Shown piece by piece: positions 1 through 8,045 of a stretch of 8,045 nt of DNA. The DNA comes from Escherichia coli. Lineage in GTDB: Bacteria; Pseudomonadota; Gammaproteobacteria; Enterobacterales; Enterobacteriaceae. Where the stretch lies: the NCBI RefSeq assembly GCF_003334815.1, contig NZ_QOWO01000066.1; one strand, written 5' to 3'. A program made the translations under genes and the position numbers. Positions within the stretch are counted from its first letter, which is position 1; each line of letters begins with the position of its first letter. Under the pieces are notes generated by a model that was given only the letters and a program-made list of their open reading frames with translations, was not told the origin of the DNA and did no database searches.

Positions 1-78
1 GTTATCGTGAGAGTAATTCATCGGCACGTTAAATCATATCAGGCGTAATACCACAACCCTTAAGTTAGCGCTTATGGG
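1..78. repeat. Left terminal inverted repeat (78 bp), perfect reverse complement of 7968..8045
   Basis: Hand comparison: bases 1-78 (gttatcgtgagagtaattcatcggcacgtt...ttagcgcttatggg) are the exact reverse complement of the last 78 bases of the window. A further ~12 bp inward match imperfectly (about 7 of 12). Confidence 0.93.
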
Positions 79-124
79 GTAAAACCCCGCGTACTGAATT
101 GTGATGGTTTGGTCTCCTGCACCC

Positions 125-259
125 TTTTTTAATTTATATTGTTTATGTGAATATTATGCCTATGTTTATTATTCATATATATTACGGATGAAAATTATTT
201 GATTATTCATAATGTAAATATTTTATTGAATGATATATATCACAGATAATTTTTAATAT
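125..259 (+). promoter_or_regulatory. AT-rich putative promoter/silencing region upstream of cas3
   Basis: Very AT-rich tract with several TATA-like elements immediately upstream of the cas3 start. From established knowledge, enterobacterial type I-E cas promoters are AT-rich and H-NS repressed. No precise -35/-10 assignment could be made by eye. Confidence 0.4.
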
Positions 260-2959
260 ATGCGTAAATATCCTTTAAGTTTACTGAAGGATAAAAATAT
301 TGTGACTTTTTTTGATTTCTGGGGAAAAACCCGACGCGGCGAGAAAGACGGGGGCGACGACTATCACCTTCTTTGCTGGCATTCGCTGGATGTAGCCGCG
401 ATGGGCTATTTAATGGTTAAAAGAAATTGCTTCGGGCTGGCTGATTATTTTCGTCAATTAGGGATTTCTGACAAGGAACAGGCGGCTCAATTTTTCGCCT
501 GGTTGCTGTGCTGGCACGATATTGGAAAATTTGCCCGCTCTTTTCAACAACTTTACCTGCCCCCTGAACTCAAGATTCAGGAAGGTGCCAGAAAAAATTA
601 CGAAAAAATCTCTCATTCAACGCTGGGCTACTGGTTGTGGAATCATTATTTAAGTGAATGTCAGGAGTTACTTCCTTCATCTTCGCTCTCTCCGCGCAAA
701 CTTAGGCGAGTGATAGAAATGTGGATGCCCGTGACGACAGGGCATCATGGTCGGCCCCCTGATCGTATGGATGAATTGGATAATTTTCTGCCTGAAGACA
801 AAGCTGCAGCACGAGATTTTCTCCTTGAAATCAAACCACTGTTTCCGCTCATAGAGATCCCCGCATTCTGGGATGATGATGAGGGCATTGAACTTATAAA
901 ACACCTTTCCTGGTATATCTCTGCAACCGTCGTGCTCGCAGACTGGACGGGTTCGTCAACGCGATTTTTTCCACGCGTCGCACACCCAATGGATATTAAA
1001 GGTTACTGGCAGAAAACTTTAATTCAGGCTCAAAACGCCTTAACCGTCTTTCCTCTAAAAGCAAAAGTCGCGCCTTTCAACGGAATTAATACGCTGTTTC
1101 CTTTTATTGAGAATCCGACACCGTTACAGCAAAAGGTGCTGGATCTGGATATCAGCCAGCAAGGACCGCAGTTATTTATTCTGGAAGATGTGACTGGCGC
1201 AGGTAAAACAGAAGCGGCGCTTATCCTGGCGCACAGGTTGATAGCTGCGGGGAAAGCTCAGGGGCTGTTTTTTGGTCTGCCAACAATGGCAACGGCCAAT
1301 GCCATGTACGATCGGCTGGTCAAAACCTGGCTTGCTTTCTATTCGCCAGAATCCCGCCCCAGCCTGGTGCTGGCACATAGTGCCCGCACATTAATGGACC
1401 GCTTTAATGAATCACTCTGGTCTGGTGATTTAGTCGGGTCAGAAGAACCGGATGAACAAACGTTCAGTCAGGGATGTGCGGCCTGGTTTGCCGACAGTAA
1501 CAAGAAGGCGTTGCTGGCTGAAATTGGCGTCGGCACGCTGGATCAGGCGATGATGGCGGTGATGCCGTTCAAACATAATAATCTGCGGCTTCTGGGGCTG
1601 AGTAACAAAATCCTGCTGGCTGATGAGATCCACGCCTGTGACGCTTACATGTCGTGCATTCTTGAAGGGTTGATCGAGCGGCAGGCGCGTGGCGGAAACA
1701 GCGTTATTTTGCTTTCTGCCACGTTATCTCAACAGCAGCGCGACAAACTCGTCGCTGCCTTTGCGCGGGGTACAGAGGGCCAGCAAGAAGCTCCGTTCCT
1801 GGAAAAGGATGATTACCCCTGGCTGACGCATGTCACGAAATCCGATGTGAACTCACACCGGGTAGCGACGCGCAAAGACGTTGAGCGTAGCGTCAGCGTG
1901 GGTTGGCTTCATAGTGAACAAGAGTGTATTGCGCGTATCGAATCGGCGGTAAGTCAGGGGAAATGCATCGCCTGGATCCGGAATTCTGTCGATGACGCTA
2001 TTAAGGTTCATCGTCAGCTGCTTGCCCGCGGCGTCATTCCTGCTTCCAGCCTTTCACTTTTTCATAGCCGCTTTGCTTTTAGCGATCGCCAGCGAATTGA
2101 AACGGAAACGCTGGCACGCTTTGGTAAATATTGTAGTTTACAGAGAGCGTCGCAAGTCATTGTTTGTACACAAGTAATTGAGCAAAGCGTGGATATTGAC
2201 CTGGACGAAATGATCTCCGACCTGGCCCCTGTTGATTTGCTGATTCAGCGAGCAGGACGATTACAGCGGCATATCCGCGATATTAATGGTCAGTTAAAGC
2301 GTGACGGAAAGGACGAGCGTTCCCCCCCTGAATTGCTGATTCTGGCTCCCGTCTGGGACGACTCTCCTGGCGACGAATGGTTTGGCAGTGCCATGCGTAA
2401 CAGTGCATTTGTCTATCCCGATCATGGGCGAATCTGGCTGACGCAGCGTGTGCTGCGTGAGCAAGGTGCTATTCAGATGCCACACGCAGCCCGGCTTCTT
2501 ATTGAATCCGTCTACGGTGAGGACGTGGTAATGCCGGAAGGATTTGCCCGCAGCGAGCAGGAGCAAGTGGGCAAATATTACTGTGATCGCGCAATGGCTA
2601 AAAAGTTTGTGCTGAACTTCAGGCCCGGCTATGCCGCCAATATCAACGATTACCTCCCGGAAAAACTGTCGACACGTCTGGCTGAGGAGTCTGTTTCCCT
2701 GTGGCTGGCTACCTGTATTGACGGTGTGGTGAAGCCTTATGCCACCGGTGCTCACGCATGGGAAATGAGCGTTGTCAGAGTGCGCCGAAGCTGGTGGAAA
2801 AAACATCGGGATGAGTTTTCTTTACTGGAGGGAGAGGCGTTCAGGCTGTGGTGCATTGAACAGCGACAAGATCCGGAGATGGCAAACGTGATTTTAGTCA
2901 ACGATGACGAAAGTTGCGGGTATTCGGCTACGGAAGGATTGATTGGCAAGGTTGGTTGA
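260..2959 (+). CDS. cas3: Type I-E Cas3 HD nuclease / superfamily-2 helicase (899 aa)
   Basis: Long ORF with ATG at 260 and TGA at 2957-2959. N-terminal HD-domain motifs (HLLCWHSLDVAA, CWHDIGKF), Walker A (DVTGAGKTEAAL) and DExH-like box (LLADEIHACD). Size and position upstream of cse1 match type I-E cas3. No clear Shine-Dalgarno before the ATG, so the exact start is uncertain. Confidence 0.93.
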   Translation: MRKYPLSLLKDKNIVTFFDFWGKTRRGEKDGGDDYHLLCWHSLDVAAMGYLMVKRNCFGLADYFRQLGISDKEQAAQFFAWLLCWHDIGKFARSFQQLYLPPELKIQEGARKNYEKISHSTLGYWLWNHYLSECQELLPSSSLSPRKLRRVIEMWMPVTTGHHGRPPDRMDELDNFLPEDKAAARDFLLEIKPLFPLIEIPAFWDDDEGIELIKHLSWYISATVVLADWTGSSTRFFPRVAHPMDIKGYWQKTLIQAQNALTVFPLKAKVAPFNGINTLFPFIENPTPLQQKVLDLDISQQGPQLFILEDVTGAGKTEAALILAHRLIAAGKAQGLFFGLPTMATANAMYDRLVKTWLAFYSPESRPSLVLAHSARTLMDRFNESLWSGDLVGSEEPDEQTFSQGCAAWFADSNKKALLAEIGVGTLDQAMMAVMPFKHNNLRLLGLSNKILLADEIHACDAYMSCILEGLIERQARGGNSVILLSATLSQQQRDKLVAAFARGTEGQQEAPFLEKDDYPWLTHVTKSDVNSHRVATRKDVERSVSVGWLHSEQECIARIESAVSQGKCIAWIRNSVDDAIKVHRQLLARGVIPASSLSLFHSRFAFSDRQRIETETLARFGKYCSLQRASQVIVCTQVIEQSVDIDLDEMISDLAPVDLLIQRAGRLQRHIRDINGQLKRDGKDERSPPELLILAPVWDDSPGDEWFGSAMRNSAFVYPDHGRIWLTQRVLREQGAIQMPHAARLLIESVYGEDVVMPEGFARSEQEQVGKYYCDRAMAKKFVLNFRPGYAANINDYLPEKLSTRLAEESVSLWLATCIDGVVKPYATGAHAWEMSVVRVRRSWWKKHRDEFSLLEGEAFRLWCIEQRQDPEMANVILVNDDESCGYSATEGLIGKVG

Positions 2960-3056
2960 GATGTCTGCGACAGGACTCTCTGAATAGTTGATACACCGAA
3001 AAGGATGGAAAGATGGACAACCGACCTGGGATGGTCTTTTTTACGAGAGGATGCGT

Positions 3057-4619
3057 ATGAACTCGTTTTCACTTCTGACAACCCCGTGGTTGCCCGTTCG
3101 TTTTAAAGACGGAACGACAGGCAAACTGGCGCCAGTCGATCTGGCGGATGAAAATGTTGTCGATATTTCTGCGCCGCGGGCAGATCTCCAGGGTGCGGTA
3201 TGGCAGTTTTTGCTGGGGCTACTACAAACCAGCTTCGCGCCAAAAGATCATCGTCGTTGGGATGATATCTGGGAAGACGGACTGGAAGCTGAAAAGCTAC
3301 GGGAAGCATTGCAGTCATTAGAACATGCTTTCCAGTTTGGGCCAGATTCCCCTTCATTTATGCAGGATTTCGAGGCGCTCACCGGAGATAAAGTTCCGGT
3401 CGCTTCGCTACTGCCTGAGATTCCCGGCGCTCAAACAACGAAGTTTAATAAAGACCACTTTATCAAGCGTGGTGTAACGGAATACCTGTGCCCACATTGT
3501 TCTGCGTTAGCTCTGTTCTCCCTACAGTTGAATGCGCCGTCAGGTGGCAAAGGCTACCGCACCGGTTTACGCGGCGGTGGGCCGATGACCACTCTGATTG
3601 AATTACAGGAATATCAGGGTAATCAACAAACTCCCTTGTGGCGCAAACTGTGGATCAATGTCATGCCGCAGGATGAAGCCGATTTACCGCTACCCAAAAA
3701 ATTTGACGATCTGGTTTTCCCCTGGCTTGGCCCGACGCGCACCAGCGAACTGGCCGGTGCGGTGGTAACCGATGAGCAGGTCAATAAACTCCAGGCGTAC
3801 TGGGGAATGCCTCGCCGTATTCGTATTGATTTTAATACCACGACAGTCGGCAACTGCGATATTTGCGGTGAGCAGAGCGACGCGCTCCTGAGCCTGATGA
3901 CGACCAAAAATTACGGTGCGAATTATGCCATGTGGCAGCATCCCTTAACGCCTTACCGTGTACCACTTAAAGAGGGTGGCGAGTTTTACTCCGTTAAACC
4001 ACAACCGGGCGGTTTAATCTGGCGTGACTGGTTAGGCCTTATCGAAACGGGTAAATCAGAAAACAATACGGAACTTCCCGCGCTGGTGGTGAAACTCTTC
4101 AATGCCAGCAGTCTCAAGCAGGCAAAAGTGGGCCTGTGGGGATTTGGCTATGATTTCGACAACATGAAAGCGCGCTGTTGGTACGAACACCATTTCCCGC
4201 TGCTGCTCGATAAAAAAGAAGGTCAGATACCGAAGCTGCGGCTGGCTGCGCAAACAGCTTCACGGATTCTAAGTCTGTTACGGAGTGCATTGAAAGAAGC
4301 ATGGTTCTCCGATCCAAAAGGTGCAAGGGGTGATTTTAGTTTTGTGGATATCGACTTCTGGAACAAAACTCAGCATCGCTTTCTGAGGTTAGTGCGCCAA
4401 ATTGAAGAAGGTCAGGATGCGGATGAATTACTCAGCAAATGGAATAAGGAAATTTGGTTATTCGCACGTCAGGATTTTGACGAGCGTGTATTCACCAATC
4501 CTTATGAGCCCGTTGATCTGGAACGCGTCATGACCGCGCGCAAGAAATATTTTACAACATCGGCGGAGAAGCAAAGTGCTAAAGCCGCCAGGGAGAAAAA
4601 GCAGGAGGCTGCTGAATGA
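3057..4619 (+). CDS. cse1: Cascade large subunit Cse1/Cas8e (CasA), ~520 aa
   Basis: N-terminus MNSFSLLTTPWLPVRFKDG resembles the E. coli CasA N-terminus (..NWIPVR..) and an internal GLRGGGPMTT resembles CasA SGLRGGTPVTT, both as I recall them. The stop overlaps the cse2 start. Start chosen at ATG 3057, with GAGG six nt upstream; the ORF-track start at 2988 is a TTG, and ATG 3051 is also possible. Confidence 0.88.
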   Translation: MNSFSLLTTPWLPVRFKDGTTGKLAPVDLADENVVDISAPRADLQGAVWQFLLGLLQTSFAPKDHRRWDDIWEDGLEAEKLREALQSLEHAFQFGPDSPSFMQDFEALTGDKVPVASLLPEIPGAQTTKFNKDHFIKRGVTEYLCPHCSALALFSLQLNAPSGGKGYRTGLRGGGPMTTLIELQEYQGNQQTPLWRKLWINVMPQDEADLPLPKKFDDLVFPWLGPTRTSELAGAVVTDEQVNKLQAYWGMPRRIRIDFNTTTVGNCDICGEQSDALLSLMTTKNYGANYAMWQHPLTPYRVPLKEGGEFYSVKPQPGGLIWRDWLGLIETGKSENNTELPALVVKLFNASSLKQAKVGLWGFGYDFDNMKARCWYEHHFPLLLDKKEGQIPKLRLAAQTASRILSLLRSALKEAWFSDPKGARGDFSFVDIDFWNKTQHRFLRLVRQIEEGQDADELLSKWNKEIWLFARQDFDERVFTNPYEPVDLERVMTARKKYFTTSAEKQSAKAAREKKQEAAE

Positions 4620-5152
4620 GTATTGTAAAAGAGGAGCACAAAGCCACGCTGCGCAAATGGCACGAGGAATTGCAGGAGAAACGTGGCGAACGTGCCAGTC
4701 TGCGGCGTAGTACGACGGTTAATGATGTTTGTCTGACGGATGGATTTCGCCTGTTTCTGAAGAACAGACAAATAAAGTGGCAGGATGAACCTGAGTGGCG
4801 TATCACCGCACTGGCGCTGATAGCCGCAGTTAGCGCCAATGTTAAAGCTATTGATGAACGGCAGCCTTTTGCCGCGCAGCTGGCGGCGGTAATGTCAAAG
4901 GGGCGTTTTACTCGTCTGTCGGCAGTAAAAACACCGGATGAATTACTGCGCCAGTTACGCCGCGCAGTCAGATTATTAAACGGTTCCGTCAATCTTGACT
5001 CTCTGGCAGAGGGGGTCTTCCGTTGGTGCCAGGAGAGCGACGACCTGCTCAATCATCACCGCCGCCAGCAGCGGCCAACCGAATTTATCCGTATCCGCTG
5101 GGCGCTGGAATATTACCAGGCTGGCGACGCCGATAACGAACAAAATCAATAA
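4616..5152 (+). CDS. cse2: Cascade small subunit Cse2/Cas11 (CasB), 178 aa
   Basis: ATG at 4616 overlaps the cse1 stop (ATGA), with AGGAGG about 8 nt upstream. Size, basic/helical composition and position between cse1 and the cas7 start are as expected for Cse2. Assignment is mainly by synteny and size. Confidence 0.8.
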   Translation: MSIVKEEHKATLRKWHEELQEKRGERASLRRSTTVNDVCLTDGFRLFLKNRQIKWQDEPEWRITALALIAAVSANVKAIDERQPFAAQLAAVMSKGRFTRLSAVKTPDELLRQLRRAVRLLNGSVNLDSLAEGVFRWCQESDDLLNHHRRQQRPTEFIRIRWALEYYQAGDADNEQNQ

Positions 5153-5163
5153 AGGACTATCTC

Positions 5164-5208
5164 ATGACAACATTTATTCAGCTTCATTTGTTAAGGGGCG
5201 GCTTATGA
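5164..5208 (+). pseudogene. cas7: cas7 (casC/cse4) remnant: 14-codon stub MTTFIQLHLLRGGL*
   Basis: ATG at 5164 preceded by AAAGGA at the expected spacing. The first residues (MTTFIQLHLL) resemble the E. coli CasC N-terminus (MSNFINIHVL, as I recall it). The ORF ends after 14 codons at a TGA that overlaps the cas5 ATG. A native cas7 is about 360 codons. Confidence 0.5.
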
Positions 5209-5526
5209 GCCAATATCTGATTTTTCAGCTTCATGGGCCGATGGCGTCCTGGGGTGTCGATGCTCCAGGTGAAGTTCGTCATACCCATGAACTTCCTTCG
5301 CGCTCAGCATTGCTGGGGCTACTGGCTGCCGGGGTAGGGATTCGGCGTGATGATACCGAACGCTTAAACGCGTTTAATCGCCACTATTCACTGGTGGTTT
5401 GCGCCAGCCGTAACCCGCGCTGGGCACGGGATTATCACACGGTCCAGATGCCAAAAGAGGTGCGTAAAGCACGTTATTTCAGCCGTCGCGAAGAGTTGAG
5501 CGACCCTGATCCGCACGCACATTCCG

Positions 5527-6605
<1,079 letters not shown>

Positions 6606-6701
6606 GTTATCCGTTCTTTAAAAATAAGGAAATGTTTTAATTTAGTTGGTAGATTGTTGATGCGGAATAAATTTGTTTAAAAACAGTTATGTATGCTTAG
6701 T
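6606..6701 (+). promoter_or_regulatory. CRISPR leader (AT-rich, between cas2 and first repeat)
   Basis: 96-bp AT-rich segment immediately upstream of repeat 1 and downstream of cas2, the canonical I-E leader position that carries the array promoter and IHF/integration signals. Confidence 0.8.
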
Positions 6702-7949
6702 GTGTTCCCCGCGCCAGCGGGGATAAACCGAACATTAAATTGCCGTGCTGGATGAATCGCGGGTGTTCCCCGCGCCAGCGGGGATAAACCCTGGATCAGC
6801 TGGTTCAATCGTTTACAGCACTGGTGTTCCCCGCGCCAGCGGGGATAAACCGGCAGTAAATTATTTGACCTCGTTGATAATCCCGTGTTCCCCGCGCCAG
6901 CGGGGATAAACCGCCGGTGCAACTGATATTGATAAACGTCGACTCGTGTTCCCCGCGCCAGCGGGGATAAACCGACACCCGACCGCTAACCGATTTCGTT
7001 ACAGTAGTGTTCCCCGCGCCAGCGGGGATAAACCGTGTATCACCGAAAGAATGGTTTGACGCGCAGGGTGTTCCCCGCGCCAGCGGGGATAAACCGACGT
7101 CTATCATTTTCAGTACAAGCTGGGTTTTGTGTTCCCCGCGCCAGCGGGGATAAACCGGACGATCCCGAGATTCACAGAGTTACAACTAAGTGTTCCCCGC
7201 GCCAGCGGGGATAAACCGGAAATTTTCACATGGATTGTAGCCCTGTATATGTGTTCCCCGCGCCAGCGGGGATAAACCGGCCAGGCGGTCGGATTAGGTG
7301 CAAATCAAAATGTGTTCCCCGCGCCAGCGGGGATAAACCGCGCTGGCGGTGCGAGTGCTGGAGGCGCTGAAAGTGTTCCCCGCGCCAGCGGGGATAAACC
7401 GCAGGAGACGGCCAGCCGGAACGGCGGCGGCGTGTGTTCCCCGCGCCAGCGGGGATAAACCGTCGGGCGGCTCTGGTGTTCCTGACATGGCGGCGTGTTC
7501 CCCGCGCCAGCGGGGATAAACCGAATTTGCATCACATAGGGGCGAGGCTCAGTGAGTGTTCCCCGCGCCAGCGGGGATAAACCGTTCTTGCGGGTGTTGC
7601 AAATATTCTCCACGTAGTGTTCCCCGCGCCAGCGGGGATAAACCGCCTGTTTTTTGTGCGGGGAATTATGGGGGAATGTGTTCCCCGCGCCAGCGGGGAT
7701 AAACCGTTATACTGATTTTGATTTGTATTTCGGTCGCTGTGTTCCCCGCGCCAGCGGGGATAAACCGACACGCCCTGCCGTATTTACTGACGCGCAGGAG
7801 TGTTCCCCGCGCCAGCGGGGATAAACCGCCGCGCAAATCCAGCGAGCCGCCGACGCTCAGTGTTCCCCGCGCCAGCGGGGATAAACCGTTGCAAACCGTG
7901 GCAAACGCAATTAACAAAAAGTGTTCCCCGCGCCAGCGGGGATAAACCG
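6702..7949 (+). CRISPR. Type I-E CRISPR array: 21 x 29-bp repeats (GTGTTCCCCGCGCCAGCGGGGATAAACCG), 20 unique spacers
   Basis: Repeat starts at 6702, 6763, 6824 and so on at 61-bp period to 7800, then 7860 and 7921. Spacers are 32 bp except spacer 19 (7829-7859, 31 bp). Repeat 2 ends in C instead of G (6791). The repeat has the CCCCGC/GCGGGG stem and ATAAACCG 5-prime handle typical of I-E crRNA. Transcribed on + from the leader, so the newest spacer is 6731-6762. Confidence 0.97.
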
Positions 7950-7967
7950 AGTTAAGAGGGGGTTTTT

Positions 7968-8045
7968 CCCATAAGCGCTAACTTAAGGGTTGTGGTATTA
8001 CGCCTGATATGATTTAACGTGCCGATGAATTACTCTCACGATAAC
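7968..8045. repeat. Right terminal inverted repeat (78 bp), reverse complement of 1..78
   Basis: Hand comparison shows an exact reverse-complement match to bases 1-78. It begins 18 bp after the last CRISPR repeat. Confidence 0.93.

Follow-up and report, generated by a model that had tools for sequence, protein, structure and literature searches.

The window analyzed here, the whole 8,045-nucleotide Escherichia coli contig NZ_QOWO01000066.1 (assembly GCF_003334815.1), contains a run of cas genes, a leader and a CRISPR array, and its two ends form an inverted repeat. The locus is an ordinary chromosomal E. coli type I-E locus at cysH-iap, and the arms of the repeat are ends of the insertion sequence (IS) IS186/IS421. 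We are highly confident that the window is a contig of this locus lying between two full-length inverted copies of IS186/IS421, which inserted independently and between which the segment would flip by recombination. The features at the two ends, assigned in part by comparison with the complete genome of strain ETEC4073, are as follows.

1-76, minus strand: transposase-proximal end of the left IS186/IS421 (100% match to IS421; exact in K-12 IS186A), with its 23-bp terminal inverted repeat at 54-76 and the transposase ATG at 21, directed outward; the remaining IS lies past the window
77-86, plus strand: inner copy of the left 10-bp target-site duplication, GGGTAAAACC (in ETEC4073, the same 10 bp recurs on the side of the IS facing hok)
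7960-7969, plus strand: inner copy of the right 10-bp target duplication (junction comparison with ETEC4073)
7970-8045, plus strand: transposase-proximal end of the right IS186/IS421 (junction mapping; near-identical complete loci), with its terminal inverted repeat at 7970-7992 and the transposase ATG at 8025, directed outward

IS186/IS421 ends at the limits of the window

Sequence comparison bore out an earlier note on this DNA in that positions 1-78 and 7968-8045 are perfect reverse complements, and, when mismatches were allowed, pairing extended to 93 nt at 95% (arms 1-93 and 7953-8045), in agreement with the imperfect inward extension described there. An exact inverted repeat of 78 nt within 8 kb is far above chance expectation. 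Each arm is composed of 76 nt of the transposase-proximal IS end and 2 nt of target sequence, with the IS boundaries at position 76 on the left (...CAACCCTTAAGTTAGCGCTTATG) and position 7970 on the right (CATAAGCGCTAAC...). The exact repeat measures 78 rather than 76 nt because GG starts both flanks, and the imperfect extension past the IS ends is due to the palindromic nature of the target motif.

The repeat was searched for known IS ends, as had been proposed, in a set of 5426 complete E. coli genomes. A 100-nt query from the left end was found at 8963 places in 2192 of these genomes, with a 100% match to annotated IS421 in many of them, and the gene over the matches was always annotated as "IS4-like element IS421 family transposase." The full element, a member of the IS4 family named IS186 and designated IS421 in NCBI annotation, is 1339 bp in length and has 23-bp terminal inverted repeats, CATAAGCGCTAACTTAAGGGTTG, at both termini. 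A full copy from ETEC4073 was identical to IS186A of E. coli K-12 at 1339 of 1339 positions; the transposase of IS186A is annotated as "IS186/IS421 family," and the 76-nt IS portion of the arms has an exact occurrence in this element. The two ends of the IS differ past the common 23 bp, and both arms of the window correspond to the transposase-proximal end. Reading outward, from 21 to 1 on the minus strand and from 8025 to 8045 on the plus strand, each arm has the sequence ATGAATTACTCTCACGATAAC, encoding MNYSHDN, the first 7 codons of the IS421 transposase (370 amino acids [aa]; WP_001300563.1), which is annotated in both IS copies of the complete genomes. The absence of a transposase from the window is, therefore, a consequence of the window ending early inside each IS; the observation that no transposase is present holds for a complete open reading frame (ORF) but not for the gene start, which is found in each arm. 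Assignment to IS186/IS421 is supported by the terminal repeats, the identity to the reference element, the element's own transposase and a GGGG(N6/N7)CCCC target with duplication of its core. Earlier work has already described IS186, the targets that it prefers and its occurrence at this locus.

The window is a short-read contig, both limits of which fall in a multicopy repeat that was collapsed in assembly. The contig breaks within this repeat, and each IS is, for this reason, visible over 76 nt only; the depth at which the contig stops inside the IS reflects assembly, not biology. The suspicion of a contig-end artefact was, hence, justified with respect to the extent of the arms but not with respect to the repeat itself, which is real DNA. 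A sibling contig of 8118 bp from draft assembly GCA_965212685.1 carries this locus as well, its ends lying 108 and 117 nt into the IS; its coordinates are offset by 32 nt from those of the window, and its gene calls were carried over. The window contig alone gives no orientation of the segment for its own strain.

Target sites and orientation of the segment

The gene order in ETEC4073 is cysJIH - hok - IS421(-) - cas3 casA casB cas7e cas5e cas6e cas1e cas2e - CRISPR (1249 bp) - IS421(+) - CRISPR (273 bp) - iap - cysDNC. The right IS interrupts a spacer in the complete genomes, with 2 to 5 more spacers between it and iap. Contrary to what the earlier note had supposed, the repeats, therefore, do not bracket the whole CRISPR-Cas locus. 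The IS was found beside hok-cysH in ~620 complete genomes, out of 2662 matching the cas region of the window, and the right-hand junction was also present in ~23 genomes (19 at a query coverage of at least 80% and several more with a different preceding spacer). The view that E. coli type I-E loci are not flanked in this manner is not tenable, as an IS adjoins cas3 in the ~620 genomes and such arrangements have been described (PMC3903273).

Both target-site duplications and empty sites were looked at. In ETEC4073, GGGTAAAACC is present on both sides of the left IS and GGGTTTTTCC on both sides of the right IS, each duplication being 10 bp in length. The original left target, GGGG-GTAAAA-CCCC, begins 10 nt past the hok stop codon, upstream of cas3, and is present as an intact empty site in strain E14. 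The original right target, GGGG-GTTTTT-CCCC, is located within a CRISPR spacer; removal of the right IS and one copy of the duplication restored a normal 32-nt spacer, AGTTAAGAGGGGGTTTTTCCCCACCGTTCAGG, and this intact spacer, representing the empty right site, was found in strain NCTC9041. As the duplications are separate for the two IS copies and the outer flanks are not the same, these were separate insertions and the two copies did not arrive as one unit. GGGG(N6/N7)CCCC is a specific target pattern of IS186 (Lee et al. 2016, PMC5009759). There were no matches to GGGG(N6)CCCC in the window as it stands because the insertions split both sites; in a reconstructed IS-free locus of 19.6 kb, there were exactly two such motifs, and these were the two occupied sites. 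Each IS186 copy inserted independently into a perfect GGGG(N6)CCCC sequence, one by hok and the other in the spacer.

The proposal that the segment between the arms could invert was supported by the detection of both orientations among related complete genomes. Strain 52F4 has the order cysN-cysD-iap - CRISPR remnant - IS421(-) - cas3...cas2 - CRISPR - IS421(+) - hok - cysH - cysI. The inner junctions in this strain are identical to the ones in the window, but the outer flanks have traded places, so that each IS has one half of each target duplication. Such swapped halves are the hallmark of homologous recombination between copies in inverted orientation. A query for the inverted state detected 52F4, ECCHD184, G1/2, G6/7, G8 and 64EVA (at least 6 of the ~23 genomes), and many others had the canonical order. 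Junctions were confirmed at the level of single bases for 4 loci in the inverted state and 9 in the canonical one; in 52F4, ECCHD184, G1/2 and 64EVA, the inner junctions were kept and the outer flanks swapped. In every strain compared, the two IS copies were essentially identical along their 1339 bp. A segment lying between inverted IS copies is turned around when these recombine, with no signal in short reads (Lee et al. 2016, PMC5009759), and inversions mediated by IS elements are a common occurrence in the evolution of E. coli (PMC4173774). The most plausible mechanism is one in which the identical 1.3-kb inverted copies would serve as substrates for RecA-type homologous recombination, so that the CRISPR-Cas segment of ~8 to 11 kb would flip, keeping its inner junctions and swapping the outer ones.

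In order to see whether orientation follows relatedness, single nucleotide polymorphisms (SNPs) were compared across the segment between the IS copies and both flanks. Only 2 SNP columns were present in 1.6 kb of the hok flank, which is too sparse for a tree, and the cas3 segment did not vary except in one deletion strain that was misaligned. SNPs to serve as crossover markers were also sought between the two IS copies, which are essentially identical and provided none. With respect to spacer content, 52F4 groups with canonical strains lacking spacers 30 to 32, and ECCHD184 and G1/2 keep spacer 32, like canonical strains ES5 and X14-3. The inverted strains, hence, have no common spacer-deletion pattern, and these patterns hint at more than one inversion event, although identical repeat-mediated losses can recur.

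Two further strains bear on the use of these sites. In HSP425, the right IS is in the same spacer and has the same 10-bp duplication but the opposite orientation, resulting in a direct-repeat pair (IS421 copies at 7087-8425 and 13050-14388 of locus L022). This strain, IAL7250 and BS74R-D have a common casA-cas2 deletion junction, and the right IS of the latter two is in the usual orientation. The opposite orientation combined with the common junction implies that the hotspot was hit more than once or that the IS was re-inserted, and it is, therefore, not safe to assume a single ancestral right-hand insertion. NCTC9041 is without the right IS and has another IS421 in a repeat of the array adjoining queE; a segment of ~17 kb, hok-cysHIJ...ygcE, is inverted between this copy and the cas3-side IS421. 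The IS421 copies of NCTC9041 are at L008 13336-14674 and L017 4901-6239. The flanks of the queE-array copy suggest a duplication, CGGTTTATCC, with only a half-match to the target motif.

The cas operon and array

The features between the target duplications, which were read from the sequence and from near-identical loci, are given below.

87-259, plus strand: AT-rich intergenic region upstream of cas3 (sequence; RefSeq cas3 position in near-identical loci)
260-2959, plus strand: cas3, 899 aa, intact (ORF; RefSeq annotation; Pfam Cas3_HD on the sibling contig)
3057-4619, plus strand: casA/cse1, 520 aa (sibling contig gene call; RefSeq annotation)
4616-5152, plus strand: casB/cse2, 178 aa (ORF; RefSeq; sibling contig)
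5164-5208, plus strand: cas7e stub of 14 codons (alignment to ETEC4073; same junction in 52F4)
5205-5630, plus strand: truncated cas5e, running out of frame into cas1e (alignment to ETEC4073; ORF)
5584-6315, plus strand: cas1e remnant, 5'-truncated, 243 aa as called (ORF; sibling contig)
6312-6605, plus strand: cas2e, 97 aa (ORF; RefSeq; sibling contig)
6606-6701, plus strand: CRISPR leader (position between cas2 and the first repeat)
6702-7949, plus strand: CRISPR array of 21 repeats of 29 nt and 20 spacers, the leader-proximal part of CRISPR2.1
7950-7969, plus strand: first 20 nt of the 32-nt spacer split by the right IS (AGTTAAGAGG + GGGTTTTTCC)

Loci near-identical to the window had ~98.6 to 99.98% identity across positions 1-5194, the highest value being that of ETEC4073. 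Relative to ETEC4073, the window has two deletions. One of 1025 bp removes nearly all of cas7e (junction 5194|5195, with TAA microhomology) and has a junction in common with strain 52F4. The other, of 1188 bp (junction 5509|5510, with GA microhomology), takes out the 3' part of cas5e, the entire cas6e and the 5' end of cas1e and creates the unique ORF at 5205-5630; it was absent from all the complete genomes matched. The exact protein of this ORF is on record on three contigs only, all of 5 to 10 kb, one of which, the 8118-bp sibling contig, was read. The "reduced" cas operon is, hence, the outcome of two plain deletions, which are decay events. The system is not a complete type I-E system: it has lost cas7e and cas6e by deletion and has truncated forms of cas5e and cas1e, with cas3, casA, casB, cas2 and the array remaining. 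Given the established composition of the type I-E Cascade complex, the remaining genes would not be expected to allow its assembly.

The arrays across this lineage derive from one ancestral series of ~35 spacers by differing internal losses. The leader-proximal spacers are common to most strains, with no sign of recent spacer acquisition. The spacer starting near 7831 is 31 nt instead of 32 nt in length. A scan of the window with Rfam gave zero matches at gathering thresholds.

Several differing cas lesions were observed among strains with the cas3-side IS421, most of which also have the right copy. Strain 160-11H1 has a 3291-nt cas3-casA fusion ORF, and NCTC9041, with the left IS only, has partial cas3 and casA genes. 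The cas3 genes of ETEC4073 and ETEC4090 are annotated as frameshifted, which could be due to sequencing error. ECCHD184 has an IS66 element within the array.

Alternative explanations and known systems

The earlier note had favored a non-autonomous, transposase-less cassette with 78-bp terminal inverted repeats and a reduced CRISPR-Cas as cargo. This explanation accommodates 8045 bases without a complete transposase ORF but has practically no probability, as the arms belong to the ends of an autonomous IS of 1339 bp, each with the start and 7 codons of the transposase, as full IS copies are present at both junctions in complete genomes and as the length of 78 is set by the contig stop, the sibling contig stopping further into the IS. 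The repeats are the inner parts of full IS copies running outward past the window and not the true ends of a non-autonomous element of the miniature inverted-repeat type; these two autonomous copies have their own duplications, the locus is at its normal cysH-iap site and the segment was on no E. coli plasmid flanked by IS421. Nor is it a site-specific switch of the Hin/Gin/fimS type, in view of the repeats being whole 1339-bp IS copies; the complete genomes inspected have no annotated recombinase within the segment or next to it. That the inverted repeat is purely an assembly or hairpin artefact and absent from the genome is scarcely credible: the window is a whole short-read contig with both ends at equal depth in a repeat, but ~23 complete genomes, including ETEC4073 and NCTC9100, have exactly both junctions with full IS copies. 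We consider it unlikely that the inverted-orientation genomes are mis-assemblies of a locus with one natural orientation. Identical 1.3-kb inverted repeats hide orientation from short reads and some of the assemblies may be hybrid; however, four projects, independent of one another and from four countries, all yielded the same inverted state, a repeat of 1.3 kb is crossed by any long read a few kb in length and NCTC9041 has an independent inversion of a like kind with another partner IS.

A working compound transposon, in which the IS186 pair and its cargo would move CRISPR-Cas as a unit of ~11 to 13 kb in the manner of Tn5 or Tn10, was also considered. Two identical, inverted IS copies are present, the outer ends of which are intact and the transposase genes mostly so, and IS186 is an active element in E. 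coli. This explanation is, nevertheless, very unlikely, as there is no single duplication around the unit: in the canonical genomes, the two IS copies have separate duplications and the outer flanks are unlike, GGGTAAAACC on one side and GGGTTTTTCC on the other. Furthermore, the locus was at the ancestral cysH-iap site in all genomes inspected, with no second location or replicon, and the cas region was found at 0 plasmid places in the 5426 E. coli genomes. The only true plasmid in PLSDB with a large part of the operon is pIOMTU792 (NZ_LC542972.1; IncHI2, conjugative), in which ~9000-21000 contains casA'-casB-cas7e-cas5e-cas6e-cas1e-cas2e, an array and iap at ~95% identity to the window. This segment is without cas3, adjoins ISEcp1-blaCTX-M-15 inside a split DUF6012 gene and has no IS421 annotated alongside; it appears that ISEcp1 moved a chromosomal CRISPR-Cas piece to the plasmid as an ISEcp1 transposition unit.

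Other PLSDB records were noted in the course of this search. Plasmid NZ_MN732922.1 (IncHI2) has, at 5719-7744, hokE followed by 358 bp with 93.6% identity to window positions 77-435, corresponding to the intergenic region and the 5' end of cas3, and then IS421. Three records of 4.8 to 4.9 Mb are evidently chromosomes and produce false plasmid matches for chromosomal loci. IS186-mediated mobilization was considered on the basis of the PLSDB matches and rejected, as these comprised the three chromosome records, the one ISEcp1 fragment and the one 358-bp hok-side match, none of which was supportive.

Some points weigh against two full IS copies flanking an invertible segment. The full copies are outside the window; near-identical complete genomes, together with the start codons of the transposase in the arms, are the grounds for placing them there. 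Evidence for the inversion comes from assemblies and not from raw reads, and a segment flanked by identical inverted repeats can be placed the wrong way round by hybrid assemblers. Single and repeated inversions look alike in these data, there being too few SNPs locally and no markers in the IS copies. A bolder extension is that the inverted IS186 pair acts as a recurrent flip-flop, changing the position of cas3, the operon, the leader and the proximal array with respect to the hok and iap flanks and the orphaned distal spacers, with a possible effect on cas expression or locus decay, or that the pair occasionally transposes as a compound element with CRISPR-Cas; we regard this as improbable.

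In Tn5 and Tn10, two inverted copies of an IS of the IS4 family (IS50 and IS10, respectively) surround the cargo. The likeness of the present locus to these transposons is in architecture only, as there is no common duplication, second location or plasmid copy. In K-12 MG1655, the identical IS186A lies beside hokC/mokC/sokC and, similarly, next to hok at a GGGG(N6)CCCC site, GGGGATCACTCCCC; this is another hok locus, without CRISPR (L021 388-1961). Insertion of IS186 next to hok genes is, hence, recurrent (K-12 hokC and the CRISPR-side hok).

The closest published arrangements are those of Almendros et al. 2014 (PMC3903273), who catalogued IS186 insertions in the CRISPR-I (iap-cysH) locus, both within the CRISPR2.1 array and where hok/sok borders on cas3. 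Their arrangements D-F and I and hypothetical AH1/AH2 include two-IS intermediates proposed to lose cas genes by recombination. The IS, the two kinds of position (the IG2-IG3 boundary and the CRISPR2.1 array) and the cas-E1 locus type are the same as those found here. The two-IS intermediates of that study lead to deletion, which needs direct copies, whereas the copies here are inverted and are associated with inversion in relatives; neither "inversion" nor "inverted" occurs in that paper. The direct pair of HSP425 resembles their deletion-prone hypothetical intermediate. Targeting was ascribed there to GC-rich repeats, whereas the site used here is a spacer with an exact GGGG(N6)CCCC. The inverted loci match other IS-mediated inversions, such as the rearrangements of the long-term evolution experiment (PMC4173774) and those of PMC5009759, in having an identical inverted IS pair, a flipped segment with an IS at each end and swapped duplications. 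They differ in that the segment is small (~8 to 11 kb) and consists of the cas operon and the leader-proximal array; the process is a known one and not new.

These results call for caution in two respects. Mirror-image repeats at both ends of a short-read contig usually represent a contig between two IS copies and not a new mobile cassette, and, where CRISPR array orientation or cas synteny is taken from draft E. coli assemblies, the orientation of such a segment is not decidable by short reads. For the locus itself, the findings illustrate a point already described, namely, that IS186 targets GGGG(N6)CCCC sequences around the E. coli type I-E locus and that recombination between copies remodels it, and a direct-orientation, deletion-prone pair exists at the same spacer. 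The addition made here is a modest one: comparison of natural isolates gives direct evidence for flipping of the cas operon and leader-proximal array by a pair of IS186 copies in inverted orientation.

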